A DNA stretch of 64,000 bases from an uncultured Candidatus Actinomarina sp. (GTDB lineage: Bacteria; Actinomycetota; Acidimicrobiia; Actinomarinales; Actinomarinaceae), in NCBI GenBank assembly GCA_902565645.1, contig CACFFJ010000002.1:39105-103104 (forward strand), read 5' to 3'. Shown one piece after another: positions 8,278 to 49,109 of the stretch. Each line of letters opens with the position of its first letter. Within the stretch, counting starts at the first letter, position 1. A model generated the notes under the pieces. The model was not told the origin of the DNA. It was given only the letters and a program-made list of their open reading frames with translations, and did not search any database. The translations under genes were made by a program, and so were the position numbers.

Positions 8278-9495
8278 TTACTTAGATATAAATTCTTGAT
8301 GCAAAGCTTCTATAGCTTTAGTCATGTCGTCCTTTGGTATAACACATGAAATCCTTATTGGAGAAGTTGATATCATTCCAATATTTATTTTGTTTTTTCC
8401 TAATATTGAAAACATCTTTGAAGCAACTCCTGACTCTGCTTTCATGCCAGCACCAATGATTGAAACCCTACCAATTTCTATGTCTGAATCTGCTCCTTCT
8501 GCATCAAGCTCCTTAGAGAGTTCAGTAAGGATTTTCATTACTTCTTCTTTTTGATCTGATGGAGCAGTGAAGCTAATATCTGTTTTTGAGTCTTTAGAAA
8601 CATTTTGAACAATCATATCAACAATTATTCCACCTTCTGAAAGCGGACTAAATACTTTCCCAGCTATACCTGGTTGGTCGGGAACACCGAAGAGAGTGAA
8701 CTTAGTTTCTTTATCATTGTGTGTAACTCCTCTTACAATTGCTTCTTCCATTGTTTTTTCCTTTACTATTGTTCCTTTATTATTAGTAAATGTTGATTTA
8801 ACAATTATTGGTACATTATACCTTCTACCAAATTCTACCGACCTAGACATTAAGACTCTAGCGCCTGAAGATGCCATCTCTAACATTTCATCATATGTTA
8901 TTTCATCAATAAGCTTTGCTTCCTTAATTATTCTTGGATCTGCAGAATATACGCCATCAACATCAGTGTAAATTTCACATCTATCAGCCTTTAGTGAAGC
9001 AGCTAAAGCAACGGCAGTTGCGTCGGAACCTCCTCTTCCTAGAGTTGTTATTTCCCGAGTTTCTTTATTAACTCCTTGAAATCCAGCAACTATTACAATT
9101 TTACCTTTTTCAATTCCTTCTTTTACTCTCTCGCCTGTTATCTCTTCAATTTCTGCCATCCCGTGTCTAGAAGATGTAATTATCCCAGCTTGTGATCCTG
9201 TTAAGGAAAAACACTCATAGCCTAGGTTGTTCAAATGTATTGCCAAGAGAGACATAGTGATCCTTTCTCCAGCTGACAAGAGCATATCCATTTCTCTAGG
9301 AGATGGTTCATTTGAAAGTTCACTAGCTAATTCAATTAACTCATCTGTGCTAGAACCCATAGCCGAAACCACAACTACTACTTCATTCCCTGCATCCTTG
9401 CATTCTGTGATTCTTTTCGCGACAGTTTTAAGCGAATCAGAATTAGATACGCTTGTTCCTCCAAATTTTTGGATTATTAAACTCATCTGAAACAT
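8278..9495 (-). CDS. lysC: aspartate kinase
   Basis: IQKFGGTSVSNSDSLKTVAKRI N-terminus, 405 aa, C-terminal ACT domains; operonic with asd. Confidence 0.9.
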   Translation of the reverse strand: MFQMSLIIQKFGGTSVSNSDSLKTVAKRITECKDAGNEVVVVVSAMGSSTDELIELASELSNEPSPREMDMLLSAGERITMSLLAIHLNNLGYECFSLTGSQAGIITSSRHGMAEIEEITGERVKEGIEKGKIVIVAGFQGVNKETREITTLGRGGSDATAVALAASLKADRCEIYTDVDGVYSADPRIIKEAKLIDEITYDEMLEMASSGARVLMSRSVEFGRRYNVPIIVKSTFTNNKGTIVKEKTMEEAIVRGVTHNDKETKFTLFGVPDQPGIAGKVFSPLSEGGIIVDMIVQNVSKDSKTDISFTAPSDQKEEVMKILTELSKELDAEGADSDIEIGRVSIIGAGMKAESGVASKMFSILGKNKINIGMISTSPIRISCVIPKDDMTKAIEALHQEFISK

Positions 9496-15357: not shown

Positions 15358-16173
15358 TTATTTACCTTTAAACTTAGGCTCTCTTTTTTCCATTAAGGCA
15401 AAGATACCTTCTTTTAAATCCTCAGATGTTAAAAAAGAAGTACTCCACATTCTTACTAGGTCTAATGACTGATCTGCGGTTAGTTCTTCGCCTTTATCAA
15501 GCATCATTTTTACTCCTTTTACTACTAATGGTGAGTTAGAAGCTATCTCTTTAGCGAGATCCATTGCCCCATTCATCAACTCTTCATGTGTGTCAAAAAT
15601 ATGATTTACAAAACCAATCTCTTTTGCATACTCCGCATCAAAGGTCTTACCCGTGTAAGCAAGCTCTCTAAGTACTCCTTTAGAGATAATTTTTGGCATT
15701 CTTTGCAGGGCTCCTACGTCGGCAACTAAGCCAAGCTTTGATTCTCCAATTGAAAATTTGGCATCTTTTGTTGAGAGTCTAATGTCACAAGATGCAACCA
15801 GATTAGTTGCACCACCTATGCTAAACCCTTGAATAGCAGCAATTGTTGGTTTTTTAGTTTTTGCAACAGAAGTGAATGCATCTTGAAATTTCTTTGTTAT
15901 TTCCATTATTTCTAGTCTTTCTTCTGCATTGGTTCTTAGGTCTTCATTCAAATCAAAGGCTTCTACAAGTAAATTTATGTCTATACCTGCAGAAAAGGTG
16001 TCACCTTTTGCTGCCAAAATAATTACCATAACATCGTCGTTTTGATCTAATTCTTTAACTAGTTCTGGTAAGCCAAACCATAACTCATCATTTAAAGCGT
16101 TTTTTTTCTCAGGACGATTAAGCCATATTGTTCCTATGTTGTCTTTTATTTCTGAAAAAATTTTTTTATCCAT
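15358..16173 (-). CDS. enoyl-CoA hydratase/isomerase (crotonase) family protein
   Basis: 271 aa with a crotonase-fold oxyanion region (AAIQGFSIGGATNLVASCDIRL ... GESKLGLVADVG). Confidence 0.75.
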   Translation of the reverse strand: MDKKIFSEIKDNIGTIWLNRPEKKNALNDELWFGLPELVKELDQNDDVMVIILAAKGDTFSAGIDINLLVEAFDLNEDLRTNAEERLEIMEITKKFQDAFTSVAKTKKPTIAAIQGFSIGGATNLVASCDIRLSTKDAKFSIGESKLGLVADVGALQRMPKIISKGVLRELAYTGKTFDAEYAKEIGFVNHIFDTHEELMNGAMDLAKEIASNSPLVVKGVKMMLDKGEELTADQSLDLVRMWSTSFLTSEDLKEGIFALMEKREPKFKGK

Positions 16174-16207: not shown

Positions 16208-16867
16208 ATGGATGTATTTGAAGCTCTTTACACAACAAGAGCTATGCGAAGAGTTAAAGAAGACCCTATACCTGAAGAAATAATTAAAACTATGGTTGAT
16301 GCTGCAATAAGAGCGCCCAGTGGGTCTAATCGTCAAGGTTGGAAATTCCTCGTTGTAACAGACCCAAATATTAGAAAACAATTAGGAGACGTCTACAGGG
16401 AAACATGGGATTATTACATGAAAGAATTCTACGGAGGAAAACCGGATCTAGGTGCATCAGAAGTTGGAGACGATGAAAAAGCAAATCAAGTTATACGAAT
16501 AAGTAAGTCTGCAGGTTGGTTGGCAGAGAATTTTCATAAAGTTCCTGTACATTTTGTTATTTTATCTAGAAATGATCCAACAGGTTCATCAATATTTCCT
16601 GCTACATGGAGTCTAATGTTGGCTGGAAGAGCGCATGGTGTAGGAACCTGTTTAACAACTGTTATGTCTTTTAAGCAAAAAGAAGCTTTTGAAATACTTG
16701 GTGTTCCTGATGATAAAGGTTGGACTCTTAATGCAGTTGTAACTGCAGGTTATCCATTAGGAAAATGGGGTGTTGCTGAGAGGAATCCTGTTGATGAAGT
16801 TACATATTTAGATAAATGGGGAAATTCACCAAATTGGAGTCTAGATGAACCTCTCTGGAACTATTAA
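16208..16867 (+). CDS. nitroreductase-family protein
   Basis: TRAMRRVKEDPIPEEIIKTMVDAAIRAPSGSNRQGWKFLVV is the classic nitroreductase N-terminal signature. Confidence 0.7.
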   Translation: MDVFEALYTTRAMRRVKEDPIPEEIIKTMVDAAIRAPSGSNRQGWKFLVVTDPNIRKQLGDVYRETWDYYMKEFYGGKPDLGASEVGDDEKANQVIRISKSAGWLAENFHKVPVHFVILSRNDPTGSSIFPATWSLMLAGRAHGVGTCLTTVMSFKQKEAFEILGVPDDKGWTLNAVVTAGYPLGKWGVAERNPVDEVTYLDKWGNSPNWSLDEPLWNY

Positions 16868-16907
16868 GGGAATACAGCAGAACGTATTTTACTTAATATA
16901 ATTATTC

Positions 16908-18497
16908 ATGATATTTAATAGTCCAAAAATTGGCACTTCTTATTTATTAGTTGGAATTTTTCTTATCTTTACAACTTTAATTTACAATATCCAAACCCCT
17001 GATCCTGCTCCAGTCGTTGCAGATCCTGACCCTGCTCCAGTCGTTGCAGATCCTGACCCTGCTCCAGTTACTCCGACTCCTGACCCAACTCCCGATCCAA
17101 CACCTGAGCCAGATGAAGACGATGATGACGACACTGGTAGTACAGTTACACCGCCTGTGGACCCAGCAGAGAGGCTATTCTCCTGGGACAATCCAGCAGG
17201 CATCTCACAAGCATTACTACATACTCTTATACCTGACACTACGTCGGAGTTCATCTCCACAGGCCTGTACGTCCATAATGACATTGAATGGGGTATGCCA
17301 CATGAAAACGATAATAGGGTTGGTTCGAACTATAAACTCACATACGAGTACACAAGCGTAGAAAGTGTTCCTTGGTCAGAGTCAGATATTCACAGTGAAG
17401 ACTGCTCAAGATATGCAGATAGTTGGGAAATCGAAGCATGGTGCGACGTAGTACTAAAAGATAGATCATATTGGGGAGTAACCCTTGAAGCGTTCACTGA
17501 AGGAAATGACACAATCGTACGACCAAGAAGCATCCGACAGCGGGGACTACCTAGCCTTAACTACGCAACTGGTTGGTACGACAGCTGGTGCTCCTCAAAC
17601 TATGAATCTCTCATAGTTACACATAACAGCCCAACAGTTACTAACAAAAACGCAGTACACCCAACGACAGGGTTGGAAGCACGCTTAGGATCATGCTCCC
17701 TTTCATACCAAGCAGACGTTGAAGCTAACTACATCGACCCTCTCATGGATGCGATTGTAAACATCATGCCTACAGATATTAAAAACTTCATTGATTGGTT
17801 CAATGTGGACATCAGTACTTCATGCCGACTTAGGGACTTACAAAAAGATCCACTGTCAGTAGAGTTCCTTCGAGAAGAAGAGTTCGGAACATACACGATG
17901 TGTGCTGGGCCTGTTTCTTACTTCGCTTGGGAACCTCACCAATGGATAAGTACTAACTCTGTTACATCTAACGGGGCAGCTGCATGGTACTTGAGCGGCG
18001 ATGATAGGTACTACGAACAAACCGCTATCAATGTTGGTGGTCACCTCGATACACGCCACTGGGACGGCCACACAGATACACCTAACATGAATGCTTTGAC
18101 AACCGCAGTAATGCACGAAGTTGCGCACGCTATTGACTCAGCTGTTGCTCAGAATCGCCTTCCTGCCTACTCAAACTCTTGTGGTGACTCACTAGGTTGG
18201 GGTGGTGGAGATTACAACTCTGCAAGAAGAGCACGCCTCACAGGATTCTCAAACAACAACAACATGAATCCGCTTAACCCTCTCGAAGTGGCTGCAGAAG
18301 TTCTCCGCAACTATGCAATGAACGAATCATGGGGAATTCCATTCGAAACTGGAAGATTCATACAACAAACTGGTACCTCTTACTACGCAGTAGGTGAAGA
18401 CATATACGATCAGCCTTACGCTAAAGACTGGGCTGCTTGGGTACTAAATGAAGGACTCTCTTGTGTCCAATCTCGACTGGATACGTTTGGCGGTTAA
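16908..18497 (+). CDS. secreted Cys-rich protein with N-terminal signal/anchor, PDPAPVVADP tandem repeats, a poly-Asp tract and a HExxH motif (putative zinc metallopeptidase of unassigned family)
   Basis: 529 aa. The hydrophobic N-terminus is followed by a Pro/Asp-rich repeat linker. HEVAH lies at ~aa 400 with a Glu ~45 aa downstream. It has >=10 Cys. The nucleotide composition is visibly GC-richer than its neighbours. Confidence 0.45.
   Translation: MIFNSPKIGTSYLLVGIFLIFTTLIYNIQTPDPAPVVADPDPAPVVADPDPAPVTPTPDPTPDPTPEPDEDDDDDTGSTVTPPVDPAERLFSWDNPAGISQALLHTLIPDTTSEFISTGLYVHNDIEWGMPHENDNRVGSNYKLTYEYTSVESVPWSESDIHSEDCSRYADSWEIEAWCDVVLKDRSYWGVTLEAFTEGNDTIVRPRSIRQRGLPSLNYATGWYDSWCSSNYESLIVTHNSPTVTNKNAVHPTTGLEARLGSCSLSYQADVEANYIDPLMDAIVNIMPTDIKNFIDWFNVDISTSCRLRDLQKDPLSVEFLREEEFGTYTMCAGPVSYFAWEPHQWISTNSVTSNGAAAWYLSGDDRYYEQTAINVGGHLDTRHWDGHTDTPNMNALTTAVMHEVAHAIDSAVAQNRLPAYSNSCGDSLGWGGGDYNSARRARLTGFSNNNNMNPLNPLEVAAEVLRNYAMNESWGIPFETGRFIQQTGTSYYAVGEDIYDQPYAKDWAAWVLNEGLSCVQSRLDTFGG
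17001..17075 (+). repeat. 30-nt coding tandem repeat (PDPAPVVADP) x ~2.5 within the 16908-18497 gene
   Basis: gatcctgaccctgctccagtcgttgca repeats directly in the sequence. Confidence 0.8.
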
Positions 18498-18540
18498 GAA
18501 GCATGATAAATTTGATGCTTACTTTTAATTATTTAGAAAG

Positions 18541-18614
18541 CGCGCCCGGAGGGAGTCGAACCCCCAACCTTCTGATCCGTAGTCAGATGCTCTATCCAGT
18601 TAAGCTACAGGCGC
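18541..18614 (-). tRNA. tRNA-Arg (anticodon ACG)
   Basis: The reverse complement folds as a cloverleaf: acceptor gcgcctg/cgggcgc, anticodon loop cuACGga, T-arm GGTTCGACTCC. No encoded CCA. Confidence 0.8.
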
Positions 18615-18615
18615 T

Positions 18616-18707
<92 letters not shown>

Positions 18708-18714
18708 AAGTTTG

Positions 18715-18800
18715 CGGAGGGAGTGGGATTCGAACCCACGGTATGGAATACATACAATAGTTTTCAAGACTATCGCCTTCGTCCGCTCGGCCATCCCTCC
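18715..18800 (-). tRNA. tRNA-Ser (anticodon TGA)
   Basis: The reverse complement starts GGAGGGATGGCCGAGCGG. The anticodon loop is cuUGAaa (reads UCA, so not tRNA-Sec) with a long variable arm. Confidence 0.75.
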
Positions 18801-18820
18801 TAAAAGGTTTTATTCTTTTG

Positions 18821-18909
18821 CGGAGGGAGAGGGATTCGAACCCTCGAAGGGGATAAACCCTTACACGCTTTCCAAGCGTGCGCACTAGGCCAGACTATGC
18901 GATCCCTCC
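18821..18909 (-). tRNA. tRNA-Ser (anticodon GGA)
   Basis: The reverse complement starts GGAGGGATCGCATAGTCTGG. The anticodon loop is uuGGAaa with a long variable arm and T-arm GGTTCGAATCC. Confidence 0.75.
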
Positions 18910-18937: not shown

Positions 18938-19396
18938 TTACCTCTTGTTTTCAAAGAAAGAAGTTAATAATTCTTCTGACTCCTCTCGTAATACTCCATC
19001 AGTAATATCAGTGTAATGATTTAATCTTTTATCTTGCGGAATGTTATATAAAGTAAATGCAGAACCAGATTTTTCGTTAGGAGTACTGTATATCAGCCTT
19101 TTTACCCTTGCATTAACTATGGCTCCAGCACACATTGGGTCTGGTTCTAGAGTGACTGCAATTGTTGTACCTTCTAATCTCCATGTTTTATATTCTTTTG
19201 ATGCAGCTTTAAGTACAAGCAGTTCTGCATGTGCTGTTGGGTCTTGGTCTATTTCCCTTCTGTTGTGGTTAGCAGCAATAAGCTCATCTTTTTCATTAAA
19301 TAATGCAGCTCCAACAGGAATTTCATCTTTATCGTATGCGAGTTTTGCCTGTTCTAAAGCTACTTTCATCTTGTCAGTGTCAGATACATACTTCAT
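18938..19396 (-). CDS. tadA: tRNA-specific adenosine deaminase
   Basis: HAELLVLKAAS (HAE zinc ligand) and EPDPMCAGAI (PCxxC). 152 aa, adjacent to the tRNA-Arg(ACG) substrate gene, which is the conserved actinobacterial arrangement. Confidence 0.85.
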   Translation of the reverse strand: MKYVSDTDKMKVALEQAKLAYDKDEIPVGAALFNEKDELIAANHNRREIDQDPTAHAELLVLKAASKEYKTWRLEGTTIAVTLEPDPMCAGAIVNARVKRLIYSTPNEKSGSAFTLYNIPQDKRLNHYTDITDGVLREESEELLTSFFENKR

Positions 19397-19448
19397 TTGT
19401 TTCCTCAGTAAATTACTCTTGGTTTGTAAGGCATATTAAACTTGCAGA

Positions 19449-26340: not shown

Positions 26341-26360
26341 ACAAATAGAATACCTTATCG

Positions 26361-26433
26361 TGGAGATGATGGGACTTGAACCCACGACCCCCTGCTTGCA
26401 AAGCAGGTGCTCTTCCAACTGAGCTACATCCCC
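26361..26433 (-). tRNA. tRNA-Ala (anticodon TGC)
   Basis: The reverse complement is GGGGATGTAGCTCAGTTGG...anticodon loop uuUGCaa...GGTTCAAGTCCCATCATCTCCA. Confidence 0.8.
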
Positions 26434-26522
26434 TCGCTTTTTATATTATGCCCTGTTTCTTAGTGTAAATGAAAAAATTTTAGAAATATTTCAATTTCTT
26501 TACTAATGTATATATGACGAAA

Positions 26523-26597
26523 GGGCCTATAGCTCAGCCTGGTTAGAGCGCATCCCTGATAAGGATGAGGTCGTTAGTTCAAATCTAACTAGGCCCA
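26523..26597 (+). tRNA. tRNA-Ile (anticodon GAT)
   Basis: GGGCCTATAGCTCAGCCTGGTTAGAGC...anticodon loop cuGAUaa...GGTTCAAATCTAACTAGGCCCA, followed by a T-run. Confidence 0.8.
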
Positions 26598-26602
26598 CTT
26601 TT

Positions 26603-47038: not shown

Positions 47039-47947
47039 CTAACTCCCGCTTTGGTAAACAGATATAAAGCCTAAATAGGAGTTTGCAATTTCTTCTACGG
47101 CTTCTTCTCTCGACTTGCTGCCTTCATGCCAACCTTTTAGTGACTCCCAAAATATAGACCTGCCTATTGCAAAACCCTTATATCCATCTACAGAAGAACC
47201 TGCTCTAAGCCACTCATTAACTTTCTCATCGTTTGCACCTCGTCCAAGGACAACCGCGATAACGTCTTCTCTTCCTCCGTTTTTTATTGATTCTGCAATC
47301 TTTTCACAGTCTTCTTTCGTATCAAGACCCTCTATTTTCCATATGTCAGGGTCGGCTCCTCTTTCCCTCATTTCTTCAACAACCTTAACAGCTAGGTTTG
47401 GTCTAATTTCAGCATCATATCTTGCTTGATCTCCATCAACAGTCTCTAACTGTTCCTCGGTTGCGGGAACTAAAAATTCTAATAGAAACTTCTTTTCATT
47501 ATCAATTATCCAGTCAGAAAGAGTTTTTATTCTGCTACCTTGTATTTCTCTAGCTTCTTCTTCATCGTCGGGATTCCACCTAACCAATATTTTGATAAAG
47601 TCTGCACCAACTTCATTTATCTTTTCACCAAAGTCTTCTCCGTATTCAAAATCAAATATACTTTGGCCAGATTTTTCTACTGGTGCAGCAAATTTTATTC
47701 CATTTTCAATTGCTTTTTTTTGAACGTCTATTCCAAATTGCTCATCTACAAGTATTGCTGGGTCACCACCACTAATCCCTTTTTCTTTGGCTGAGAGGAA
47801 TCCTTCAAAAATTATATTTTTCATTTCTGAAACTCTTAAGACCTCTTCTTTTTCTGGTGGTCTTGCTTCTACGCCAAGTAGGCCTTTGGTTAGTGTTCCT
47901 CTGTGGTCAAAGGCTAAAATATATAAATCGTTTGGATAACCCTTCAT
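47039..47947 (-). CDS. class I aldolase of the LacD/DUF2090 (tagatose-1,6-bisphosphate aldolase-like) family
   Basis: ILAFDHRGTL (compare LacD ALAFDQRGAL), FIKILVRW and AIGRSIFWE blocks parallel LacD. It is operonic with pfk, suggesting it acts as a fructose/tagatose-bisphosphate aldolase. Confidence 0.5.
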   Translation of the reverse strand: MKGYPNDLYILAFDHRGTLTKGLLGVEARPPEKEEVLRVSEMKNIIFEGFLSAKEKGISGGDPAILVDEQFGIDVQKKAIENGIKFAAPVEKSGQSIFDFEYGEDFGEKINEVGADFIKILVRWNPDDEEEAREIQGSRIKTLSDWIIDNEKKFLLEFLVPATEEQLETVDGDQARYDAEIRPNLAVKVVEEMRERGADPDIWKIEGLDTKEDCEKIAESIKNGGREDVIAVVLGRGANDEKVNEWLRAGSSVDGYKGFAIGRSIFWESLKGWHEGSKSREEAVEEIANSYLGFISVYQSGS

Positions 47948-48933
47948 AGTTTAATCTTAAGCTTTTTCTTTTCTCTTTGTGTGTAAAATCTTGATACAAC
48001 AAAGACAAGCAACACTAAAAGCACAATAACTTGAGCTAAAAGCGGAATAACTTGATCACTTTGTGTTTTTTGTTCTTGTTCAAAATATTTATCTGAATAA
48101 ATAATTCCTGGATCCTGTTTTGAGTCAATAATTTCGTTTAAAACATTTAACAAATCAACTGTGTTTATACCCCAGTTGTTAGCTAGATTTTCGTCTAAAA
48201 AATATATATTATTACTTTTTACAGCAATTAGGTTTTTCCAAGATGTTCTTGTAGAAAGGTCTTTATTTAAATAGTCAGAATGACCCACAACTATTAAATC
48301 GGGGTTTGATTCTATTATTTTTTCCTCAGAAATTTCTGGATATCCGCTGCTGTATGGATCTTCTAATTCGTTAGCAATGTTTTTAACACCTAATAGGTTG
48401 TATATTTCTCCAATAAATGAGTTTTTATTTACTGTATATATTCCATAGGTGTAACCAATTTCATGAAAAATTTTAATATCTTTAAATTTTGTGTTTTGAA
48501 GAATCGTGCTTACGTCCTCTCTCATGGAAGAGATTAGGTTCTTTGCCTCGTTCTCTTTATGAATTAAATTTCCGATTATTTCAATTTGTGAATATACGTC
48601 TTCAAAGTTCCTTGCAGGAGGAAGTAGTGCATATTTCATTTCCTTCCTTTCTAAATCGGTGACTATTTCATTAATATCAAAAGCTATTAATACTACATCT
48701 GGATTTAGTTCTAAAATTTCATCTGTGGTTGCTGTAAATGCATCTATTTTCTTAACTGTTTCTGGGGTTTGTGAAAAAGAATCAGCACCCACCAGCAGCT
48801 CACCTCCTCCAAGAGCTTGTACAATCTCTGTGTGTGTTGTGGATAGACTAACTATCTTTAACTTATCTACTTTCTCTGAGTTAAGTGAACATGCTGAAAG
48901 AACCAAAGTGAGAAATAATAGCTTCTTTTTCAT
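47944..48933 (-). CDS. BtuF/FepB-type (TroA-fold) ABC substrate-binding lipoprotein, with an additional C-terminal TM anchor
   Basis: Lipoprotein signal MKKKLLFLTLVLSACS (start ATG 48933 with AGGAAA upstream; the track starts at GTG 48951). KIVSLSTTHTEIVQALG ... LVGADSFS is the BtuF-like N-lobe. A cobalamin riboswitch lies upstream. Confidence 0.65.
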   Translation of the reverse strand: MKKKLLFLTLVLSACSLNSEKVDKLKIVSLSTTHTEIVQALGGGELLVGADSFSQTPETVKKIDAFTATTDEILELNPDVVLIAFDINEIVTDLERKEMKYALLPPARNFEDVYSQIEIIGNLIHKENEAKNLISSMREDVSTILQNTKFKDIKIFHEIGYTYGIYTVNKNSFIGEIYNLLGVKNIANELEDPYSSGYPEISEEKIIESNPDLIVVGHSDYLNKDLSTRTSWKNLIAVKSNNIYFLDENLANNWGINTVDLLNVLNEIIDSKQDPGIIYSDKYFEQEQKTQSDQVIPLLAQVIVLLVLLVFVVSRFYTQREKKKLKIKL

Positions 48934-48974
48934 AATTTCCTTTCTCACCACAAGAAGAAAGCTGGGAACCCCAA

Positions 48975-49090
48975 CCCTTCTCTCGAGGTTTGTTGTTTCA
49001 AAAACAAAAAAGTCGACCTGACTTATCTTTCGAATTACAGTTGCGGGACAGTCTCAGATTTTCACTGACTTCGCTTCTTTGCTTTATTCG
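48975..49090 (-). promoter_or_regulatory. cobalamin (B12) riboswitch
   Basis: The minus-strand sequence ...AGUGAAAAUCUGAGACUGUCCCGCAACUGUAAuucgaaagauAAGUCAGGucgac contains the conserved GGUG.AA.UCC...CCCGC..CUGUAA core and the AGUCAGG B12 box, followed by a U-rich terminator-like expression platform. Confidence 0.65.
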
Positions 49091-49109
49091 TTAGAAAAAG
49101 TGTAGCAAA

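Follow-up and report, generated by a model that had tools for sequence, protein, structure and literature searches.

The window analysed here is a 64,000-nucleotide (nt) stretch of DNA from an uncultured Candidatus Actinomarina sp. (contig CACFFJ010000002.1 of assembly GCA_902565645.1, positions 39,105 to 103,104 of the forward strand). Its plus strand carries, at 16908..18497, an ATG-initiated open reading frame (ORF) for a protein of 529 amino acids (aa) with an HExxH motif, which lies between a nitroreductase-family gene (NTR) and the 3' end of a tRNA-Arg gene. An earlier note on this DNA, made from its letters alone, had described this target gene as compositionally foreign and its product as a secreted, possibly proteolytic and effector-like protein, acquired horizontally at a tRNA site. 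We found that the segment from ~16887 to 18512 is a recently acquired single-gene insertion in the Candidatus Actinomarina chromosome, and that the gene is under purifying selection. The stop codon is separated from the tRNA-Arg gene by 42 nt (18498-18539); the adjacency reported earlier therefore stands, while the distance of 43 bp given with it does not, and the gene and the tRNA are convergent. As had been read from the sequence, the tRNA-Arg gene heads an array of four tRNA genes (Arg-ACG, Ser-GCT, Ser-TGA and Ser-GGA, all on the minus strand).

The DNA around the target gene is of Actinomarina type. The SerRS gene, 1.5 kb away, is 69-74% identical to those of Candidatus Actinomarina (OCS155) single amplified genomes (SAGs) and metagenome-assembled genomes (MAGs), and at most 56% identical to those of other Acidimicrobiia. 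The gene order NT5C-HD-ECH-nitroreductase-[slot]-tRNA-Arg-Ser-Ser-Ser-TadA-LysE-SerRS was fully kept in six Actinomarina species, which served as syntenic relatives (L010-L015). A comparison of the junction across these species, which the earlier note had named as a check, found the target gene at this slot in none of the six. The slot is empty in L010, L011, L013 and L014, where it measures 13, 16, 13 and 18 nt, respectively, and it measures 655 nt in L012 and 639 nt in L015, both of which have it filled by a gene for an unrelated ankyrin-repeat lipoprotein, with a native GC content of 0.32-0.34; in the window it spans 1,672 nt. Because the slot is empty or otherwise filled in the relatives, the target gene is an insertion into a variable slot at the tRNA-Arg 3' end. 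The ankyrin lipoprotein of the two other occupied slots (~195 aa; Pfam Ank_2, E 2.6e-16; lipobox ..VSCS..) is encoded at L012:12684-13338 and L015:12692-13330, and ankyrin repeats are unusual in free-living streamlined bacteria. The target protein was not found among 185,579 GTDB species genomes, from which the window's own region is apparently absent or masked.

Composition was compared with that of the 52 other non-overlapping ORFs of at least 150 aa in the window (53 with the target). The target ORF has the window's highest GC content (~0.458-0.459 against a mean of 0.343; z 3.9; next value 0.400) and also the highest GC content at third codon positions (GC3; 0.386 against 0.239; z 4.5; next value 0.307), and at second codon positions (GC2) it reaches 0.461 (z 3.2). 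Under a codon model of the window, the per-codon synonymous log-likelihood was -1.196 for the target ORF and -0.955 +/- 0.055 for host genes (minimum -1.073), which places the target 4.4 standard deviations (SD) under the host genes. A codon model of a 45% GC genome (that of contigs L092 and L093, see below) beat the host model for the target ORF, while the reverse held for every host gene. Lysine makes up 1.3% of the target protein, the minimum of the window, where the mean is 8.4%. Both the higher GC content and the codon choices unlike those of the neighbours, which had been judged by eye, were thus confirmed by calculation. The GC excess is uneven: the first 100 nt of the ORF have a GC content of 0.27 and the remainder 0.471, and the first 50 codons show a host-like GC3 of 0.20. 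The visibly GC-rich character noted before is therefore a property of the body of the ORF and not of its first 100 nt, which are host-like.

A native, vertically inherited gene might reach such values solely through its amino-acid composition (Pro, Ala, Gly, Asp, Trp) or through high expression. In keeping with this, GC2 is raised and the amino acids account for about half of the GC excess, the expected GC content for this protein being 0.408 with host codon preferences (host mean 0.343); with the preferences of the 45% GC genome it would be 0.455. However, because the synonymous likelihood falls outside the host range, the GC difference comes from codon choice as well as from amino acids. The GC3 value, the vacancy of the slot in all six relatives and the near-identical copies at another locus in a genus with core proteins ~59-69% identical, which are described next, led us to reject a native origin as barely credible.

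Near-identical relatives of the target protein form clusters of 42 and 11 sequences, all from marine metagenomes and on short contigs. Contigs L001-L006, L090 and L091 carry a copy that is 96-97% identical in nucleotides to window 17008-18512 and have no other match to the window; the flanks of this copy in the L001-type contigs have a GC content of 0.25-0.30. The L001-type GGT gene shares 59% identity with its counterpart in 'Ca. Actinomarina minuta' and 74% with P0030 (contigs up to ~320 kb), and the host of the L001-type contigs is therefore another genus-level lineage of the Actinomarinales. A further lineage, represented by L008 (rRNA 85-87% identical to that of the others), holds a copy at 90.6% nucleotide identity, which also lies directly downstream of the 5S rRNA terminator, in the order 23S-5S-terminator-gene. 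Synonymous divergence (dS) between the copies was 0.06-0.11 (0.06 between the window and the L001-type copies) and the ratio of nonsynonymous to synonymous divergence (dN/dS) 0.12-0.25. Since the host Lactamase_B proteins are only 65-69% identical between the genera, these values indicate recent transfer between genera under purifying selection.

The second slot, at the 3' flank of the 5S rRNA gene, varies in content as well, as revealed by fetching relatives of the region and scanning them with Rfam. In L094-96 the rRNA operon ends with the 5S gene and a 34-nt terminator hairpin, directly followed by Lactamase_B, so that the slot is empty. L097/98 have a single small membrane-protein gene (DUF4345-like) at this position. 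In the L001-type contigs the target gene occupies the slot together with a second hairpin copy in inverted orientation, a gene homologous to that of the L097/98 membrane protein and a Pyr_excise gene. The target gene is thereby flanked by inverted copies of the 34-35-nt 5S terminator hairpin (L001:67-100 and L001:1852-1887; likewise in L003, L004, L090 and L091). A decayed partial copy of the 5S gene (3' ~75 nt) with its terminator hairpin lies ahead of the target gene at L002:373-472 and has the appearance of an att-type scar left by one more insertion at this slot; the AT-rich DNA upstream of it (~370 nt, L002:1-372) holds no intact ORF. A 23-codon ORF that may or may not be genuine, MNGFEDLEEELYFIITKLNKIRN, is located between the 5S terminator and the target gene at L001:115-186, equivalent to L002:487-558. 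The 16S-23S spacer of L094 (L094:5643-5781) measures only ~140 nt and has no tRNA gene.

Some contigs of this set are irregular. L009 (GCA_035092685.1, JAYKCP010056063.1) agrees with the window over the nitroreductase gene and the greater part of the target gene, whose last ~300 nt are of the L008 type (1811-2114), and the contig then runs into the 3' end of Lactamase_B rather than into tRNA-Arg. Either natural recombination between the two slots or chimeric assembly of metagenome reads would account for this. In L005 the downstream 132-aa ORF is present on either side of the gene (L005:1-357), reflecting either an inversion between the hairpin repeats or a palindromic assembly artefact, and L004 begins with a short palindromic piece of 5S.

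These irregularities, together with the fact that most gene-bearing contigs are only ~2 kb long, would suit the view that a GC-rich gene was joined to Actinomarina DNA by faulty assembly or binning. Three independent metagenome contigs from different projects (L099, L100 and L101) are, however, collinear with window 16561-18909 at 99.5-99.7% identity and reproduce both junctions base for base, and we therefore excluded an assembly artefact. Its probability is negligible, also in view of the host-like first 100 nt of the ORF itself and of the 5S-slot copies, which equally lie within Actinomarinales DNA on contigs of up to 6.3 kb.

The copies also delimit what has moved. The DNA shared by the window and L008 extends from ~16887 to 18511, including 21-22 nt upstream of the ATG. 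This upstream tail (16887-16907) aligned to the sequence just after the L008 5S terminator stem with a score of 25, which none of 2000 shuffles reached. Only ~14 nt beyond the stop codon are common to all copies. From these limits it follows that the moving unit is essentially a -10 box plus the ORF. The TATAAT at 16897-16902 is a possible promoter of a leaderless mRNA, with which its spacing would fit; leaderless mRNAs are common in Actinobacteria. A consensus scan found no intrinsic terminator and no clear sigma-70 promoter.

The target ORF itself is a mosaic. Homology to the L001-type copies begins at 17008, inside a Pro-rich repeat. The N-terminus in the window and in L008 is a signal-anchor, MIFNSPKIGTSYLLVGIFLIFTTLIY, while the N-termini of the L001-type protein and of a distant homologue, P0027, are lipoprotein signals (..LVVGSC.. 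and ..LALSAC.., respectively). Because both of these carry lipoprotein signals, the lipoprotein form is probably ancestral and the AT-rich signal-anchor a later replacement, which would also account for the compositional step at 17008. The coordinates of the locus are collected in Table 1.

Table 1. Features of the occupied slot between the nitroreductase gene and the tRNA array (window coordinates).
Feature	Position	Strand	Evidence or remark
Nitroreductase-family gene (NTR), core, left border of slot	16208..16867	+	Pfam PF00881, E 1.7e-19; full-length syntenic ortholog in six Actinomarina species
Left junction spacer, context-specific	16868..16886	.	Shared with no other copy of the gene
Upstream tail travelling with the gene; TATAAT at 16897-16902, 5 nt before the ATG	16887..16907	+	Alignment with L008
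ORF of the membrane-tethered orphan HExxH protein, 529 aa (tether predicted)	16908..18497	+	
AT-rich host-like 5' segment, predicted signal-anchor, residues 1-33	16908..17007	+	GC 0.27; lipoprotein signal instead in other-genus copies
27-nt tandem repeat, 2.6 copies, PDPAPVVAD (9 aa)	16998..17068	+	TRF: period 27, 97% matches, score 135
PT-rich acidic linker PTPDPTPDPTPEPDEDDDDD	17072..17131	+	TRF periods 12 and 9; length differs between alleles
Conserved globular domain, residues 91-529 (439 residues), 8 invariant Cys	17178..18494	+	45-46% identity to P0027, L092 and L093 over full length
HEVAH, residues 403-407 (H403, E404, H407), family-invariant	18114..18128	+	Family alignment
EVAAE, invariant E460 and E464, candidate third zinc ligand	18285..18299	+	Family alignment
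3' tail travelling with the gene, GAAGCATGATAAAT..	18498..18512	+	Homology to all other copies stops at 18511-18512
Right junction spacer up to the tRNA 3' end, context-specific	18513..18539	.	Identical in L099, L100 and L101
tRNA-Arg(ACG), right border of slot, 3' end toward the gene's 3' end	18540..18614	-	ARAGORN; Rfam 64.7 bits
tRNA-Ser(GCT), tRNA-Ser(TGA), tRNA-Ser(GGA), rest of array	18616..18909	-	ARAGORN, Rfam; same array in six relatives

Several observations were made on the genes around the slot and elsewhere in the window. The enoyl-CoA hydratase (ECH) gene at 15358-16173 on the minus strand lies one gene upstream of the insertion, with NTR in between. Its protein is 88.6% identical to the ortholog of L012 (OCS155 AG-349-E07) and only 53-57% identical to those of the other five relatives, while the genes adjoining it are ~69-77% identical to all six. 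This selective identity to the L012 ortholog suggests a separate recent recombination or gene conversion event at ECH, in the neighbourhood of the insertion. On the other side, a gene for a TadA-type tRNA adenosine deaminase (18938-19396, minus strand) adjoins the tRNA array and is kept in all relatives. tRNA-Arg(ACG) is the usual substrate of TadA, so that the gene of the enzyme and that of its substrate are adjacent here. An extra tRNA-Ser(CGA) gene is located between LysE and TadA in L010 (11825-11914) and L011 (11842-11930) and is missing at window 19397-19448 and in the four other relatives. Another contig, L016 (CAJWPI010000027.1), belongs to a MAG labelled 'uncultured Gammaproteobacteria bacterium', yet has the Actinomarina gene order and 69% SerRS identity and is probably misbinned or mislabelled; ARAGORN reported an odd tRNA with a 2-base anticodon at its positions 8915-9000. 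Farther away in the window, a divergent tRNA-Ala(TGC) and tRNA-Ile(GAT) pair lies apart from the rRNA operon at 26360-26598 and is kept in relatives, and an AdoCbl (B12) riboswitch (48967-49099, minus strand; Rfam 53.3 bits, gathering score 50) is found just upstream of the minus-strand ORF 47944-48933.

The target protein belongs to an orphan family of three clusters, which counts 63 sequences among ~15 billion. Beyond the near-identical sequences described above, HMMER run exhaustively on 1.84 billion representatives recovered a single further cluster, that of P0027, at about 45-47% identity, and a profile search covering 5.8 billion proteins left the total at three. The P0027-type homologue resides on L092 (517-2376) and L093, contigs with a uniform GC content of 0.43-0.45, and itself has a GC content of 0.449. 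The genes around it encode an OmpR/histidine-kinase pair, an FKBP lipoprotein, TrmH and CysRS. Because this homologue matches its neighbours, the composition of the window gene is as expected if it were native to a genome of ~45% GC. The proposed donor would accordingly be an unsampled marine organism of ~45% GC.

Altogether, horizontal acquisition at the tRNA site, as the earlier note had supposed, is strongly supported: the site is empty in four of the six relatives and occupied by another gene in the remaining two, 96-97% identical copies exist in another genus at another locus, codon usage is foreign, and a homologue is native to a 45% GC genome. The hallmarks of horizontal transfer are all present, namely an atypical composition, a patchy distribution, and a gene identity of 96-97% in nucleotides compared with 59-69% in amino acids for host genes.

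The gene could also be a phage- or plasmid-derived one (a moron or lysis-related gene) left behind by a mobile element. A hint in this direction is offered by a sub-threshold stretch that resembles PG_binding_1 / endolysins (E 0.12 and 0.054) in the P0027-type proteins. It lies within their N-terminal 140 residues, ahead of the conserved domain, where a lipobox and a His-Asp repeat, DHDHDHDHDHTHD, are present as well; this segment may also be taken to point weakly to the cell wall. IMG/VR, 50,697 phage records and 72,556 plasmids yielded no relative, the window protein has no PHROG match, and there are no phage genes nearby, for which reasons we rejected a phage origin as very improbable.

The architecture of the protein comprises a membrane tether, an acidic Pro/Thr stalk of varying length and a 439-residue globular domain. 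The N-terminal hydrophobic anchor or signal reported earlier is present at residues ~9-26, with 19-residue Kyte-Doolittle means of up to 1.8. Across the family the N-termini are of three different membrane-targeting types (one signal-anchor and two lipoboxes, VGSC and LSAC). These, the acidic Pro/Thr linker and the eight invariant Cys support a secreted or surface-exposed location, in agreement with the earlier prediction. The PTPDPTPDPTPEPDEDDDDD linker, the HEVAH motif and the cysteines of the globular part (eight) had been correctly recognized, in contrast to the repeat, which had been given a 30-nt unit encoding PDPAPVVADP and which TRF resolved into 2.6 copies of a 27-nt unit (PDPAPVVAD). 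The linker length and repeat number vary between alleles, and the linker of P0019/P0021 has an odd Cys/aromatic-rich segment, MCNHCFYVY. In some alleles (P0019 and P0021, of the cluster of P0002) a 14-residue insertion, VGEPFTVDFYGERF, is present in the globular domain. The suggestion that the protein is effector-like found no support, as the bacterium, a planktonic photoheterotroph, is free-living (PMC7771536) and there is no link from the gene to a secretion system or a host organism.

At 46% identity, with P0027, L092 and L093 included, the residues H403, E404, H407, D410, D427, E460, E464 and the eight Cys are invariant. The HExxH block (394-410) is 73% identical, compared with 45% overall, and ranks among the three best-conserved blocks. 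The chance expectation of an HExxH motif is 0.015 per protein of this composition. A Glu ~45 residues after HEVAH, as described before, does not correspond to the invariant ones: E460 and E464 lie 53 and 57 residues after H407. In both AlphaFold2 models, which are of low confidence (pLDDT ~33), HExxH and EVAAE are placed on consecutive long helices. The gluzincin-like arrangement suspected in the earlier note is seen at the level of motifs: like gluzincins (MEROPS clan MA(E), HExxH plus a downstream Glu), the protein has an invariant HExxH within a predicted helix, an invariant Glu 53/57 residues downstream on the next long predicted helix and a predicted extracytoplasmic location. It differs from them in lacking a profile or sequence match to any peptidase family and a confident predicted fold. 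The motifs of family M34 (anthrax lethal factor, PPEP-1), which we take to be HExxHA(V/I)D and E-x-x-A-E-x-hydrophobic-R, resemble HEVAHAID and EVAAEVLR of the target and are of use as a lead. M34-type enzymes are secreted enzymes of Gram-positive bacteria. M34 / ATLF (PF07737) gave no Pfam match at E<=10 and no PDB match, and the motif spacing is longer in the target.

The explanation that we favour, a recent single-gene import from a donor of ~45% GC that encodes a tethered zinc-peptidase-like product, has in our estimation a probability of about 0.62 as a whole. In this model the N-terminal anchor would fix the protein to the outer face of the membrane, with the Pro/Thr/Asp-rich stalk holding it off and up to four disulfides stabilising it. 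Zinc would most likely be held by H403, H407 and a downstream acidic residue (E460/E464, or D427), and the product is predicted to act as a metallopeptidase on extracellular or cell-envelope substrates. We regard the proteolytic function, which is a plausible motif-level proposition, as having about even odds.

A number of findings weigh against this explanation, the first of which concern the product and the donor. Pfam and NCBIfam searches at E<=10 returned nothing relevant, also with the catalytic region alone; the PDB gave 0 matches at E<=10 with phmmer and two profiles; and PHROGs and PADLOC gave nothing above noise for the target protein. The sole noise-level matches were to TonB-like low complexity (E 5) and the aforementioned PG_binding_1-like stretch in P0027 (E 0.12). 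The mean pLDDT of the AlphaFold2 models was 33.1 for the full-length protein (7 sequences) and 32.9 for residues 296-529 (4 sequences); the alignment could not be deepened because only three clusters exist in the searches. The third zinc ligand is not assignable, as D410 and D427 are invariant besides E460 and E464, and the direct donor is unsampled, with no more than 46% identity in the closest homologue from outside.

These results leave room for the alternative that the HExxH motif is not catalytic and that the gene encodes a non-enzymatic surface protein of the flexible genome, such as an adhesin, a binding protein or a decoration that alters phage susceptibility. The missing similarity to peptidase families and solved structures and the missing fold are as expected for such a protein, and the best-conserved block of the domain is 101-125 rather than the HExxH block. 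Moreover, the slots of relatives hold other surface or membrane proteins (the ankyrin lipoprotein and the DUF4345-like protein), and envelope functions dominate the flexible islands of this order (PMC7771536). On the other hand, the invariance of H403, E404, H407, E460 and E464 at 46% identity, their predicted helices and gluzincin-like spacing, and the low chance expectation of the motif are less readily reconciled with a non-catalytic protein. We therefore consider this alternative doubtful, though a serious competitor for the function of the product.

The remaining findings that weigh against the favoured explanation concern the insertion itself. A search of the 64-kb window for direct repeats of the tRNA-Arg 3' end, which the earlier note had also proposed, found the 3' 23-mer nowhere else, with up to 3 mismatches allowed, and there is no flanking direct repeat, target-site duplication or att-like repeat at the insertion. 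The insert is one ORF, and the neighbours from ~3 kb upstream to 4.5 kb downstream (NT5C, HD, ECH, nitroreductase, TadA, LysE and SerRS) are all syntenic core genes with no recombinase or integrase among them. Some of the traffic at the 5S slot may nevertheless be site-specific, because the scar in L002 resembles those of tRNA-targeted cassettes and tycheposons.

It is this last point, and the position of the insertion exactly at a tRNA 3' end, that make a remnant or cargo of a tRNA-targeting integrase element worth considering, either a cassette flanked by tRNA fragments, like those of the Actinomarinales flexible genomic island (fGI) fGI1, or a tycheposon-like element, with its recombinase and att repeat lost or acting in trans. 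Actinomarinales tRNA genes are hot spots for cassettes with partial tRNA repeats (PMC7771536), and tycheposons use tRNA genes likewise in Prochlorococcus (bioRxiv 10.1101/2020.12.28.424599). The partial 5S copy with terminator in L002 and the inverted 35-nt terminator copies of the L001-type contigs could be read in the same way. Yet the window shows neither a partial tRNA-Arg copy nor a recombinase over the ranges given above, and the shared unit consists of just the ORF with ~21 and ~14 nt on its sides. In addition, the gene is in tandem with the RNA gene in the 5S slot and convergent with it in the tRNA-Arg slot; this difference in orientation argues against a single att site served by an integrase. 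We consider an integrase element unlikely.

The favoured explanation instead proposes recombinase-independent insertion. Without a resident recombinase, insertion would be illegitimate or homology-facilitated, anchored in the highly conserved RNA genes, and insertions would be kept only at the few permissive intergenic sites of compact genomes, the 3' flanks of stable-RNA genes. The median intergenic spacer in Actinomarinales genomes is 2 bp (PMC7771536). The gene would now be spreading among Actinomarinales as a minimal unit that comprises the ORF with its own -10 box and 14 nt past the stop codon, with a host-like signal-anchor having taken the place of the original lipoprotein signal in the Actinomarina-type copies.

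Comparable systems have been described in streamlined marine bacteria. The insertion is like the tRNA-targeted cassettes and fGIs of the same order (PMC7771536) in that it adjoins a tRNA gene, its site differs in content between genomes, exchange takes place between genera and no mobile-element machinery is resident. It departs from them in being a single gene rather than a multi-gene island, in having no partial tRNA repeat and in its location, since tRNA-Arg(ACG) is not among the loci named in the available text of that source and the gene also occurs at the 5S 3' flank. The composition differs as well: flexible DNA of Actinomarinales is AT-richer (fGI1 28%; singletons 29.2% as opposed to 32.8% for the core; PMC7771536), in contrast to the target GC content of 0.46 in a host of 0.34. 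Like the tycheposons of Prochlorococcus (bioRxiv 10.1101/2020.12.28.424599), it represents foreign cargo lodged beside tRNA genes of a marine bacterium with a streamlined genome. New tycheposon arrivals push older ones deeper into an island and leave partial RNA-gene copies as scars (bioRxiv 10.1101/2020.12.28.424599), which the partial 5S copy of L002 resembles. Tycheposons carry a tyrosine recombinase, usually replication genes, and flanking partial tRNAs, and the target locus has none of these. SAR11 genomes also offer a parallel. The hypervariable region HVR2 of SAR11 is located beside the rRNA genes. Like HVR2, and like the tRNA-bounded hypervariable regions of small marine genomes (bioRxiv 10.64898/2026.04.03.716425), the slots studied here have variable genes beside stable-RNA genes; unlike those regions of tens of kilobases, they hold 0-3 genes, with the same gene in two slots.

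A more far-reaching reading, which we regard as a long shot, is that the gene is the visible cargo of a new minimal cassette system and founds a new family of surface zinc peptidases. A recombination activity acting in trans or encoded by the host would then carry a promoter-bearing single-gene unit of ~1.63 kb from one stable-RNA 3' flank to another (5S rRNA, tRNA-Arg) and from genus to genus, and the partial 5S copy of L002 and the inverted terminator hairpins of the L001-type contigs would represent its junction scars. The encoded zinc peptidase would belong to a family without sequence kin and work at the surface of the smallest of the free-living bacteria.

The phenomenon as such, a foreign single gene beside a stable-RNA gene in a streamlined marine bacterium, is known; this example is unusually well resolved and concerns an orphan family. 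The Actinomarinales, which rank with the most abundant and the most streamlined bacteria of the sea, have been reported to be almost without mobile elements and to have a nearly closed pangenome. The target locus departs from that picture in presenting the recent inter-genus transfer of a GC-richer gene, with its export signal swapped and no recombinase at hand. The availability of empty and filled sites at two slots that flank stable-RNA genes makes this a tractable case for studying how genes enter such genomes, and it raises the question of whether hot spots of a second type, at the 5S rRNA flank, exist besides those at tRNA genes. If the product is truly a surface zinc peptidase, it would bear on extracellular protein processing or envelope remodelling by these photoheterotrophs.

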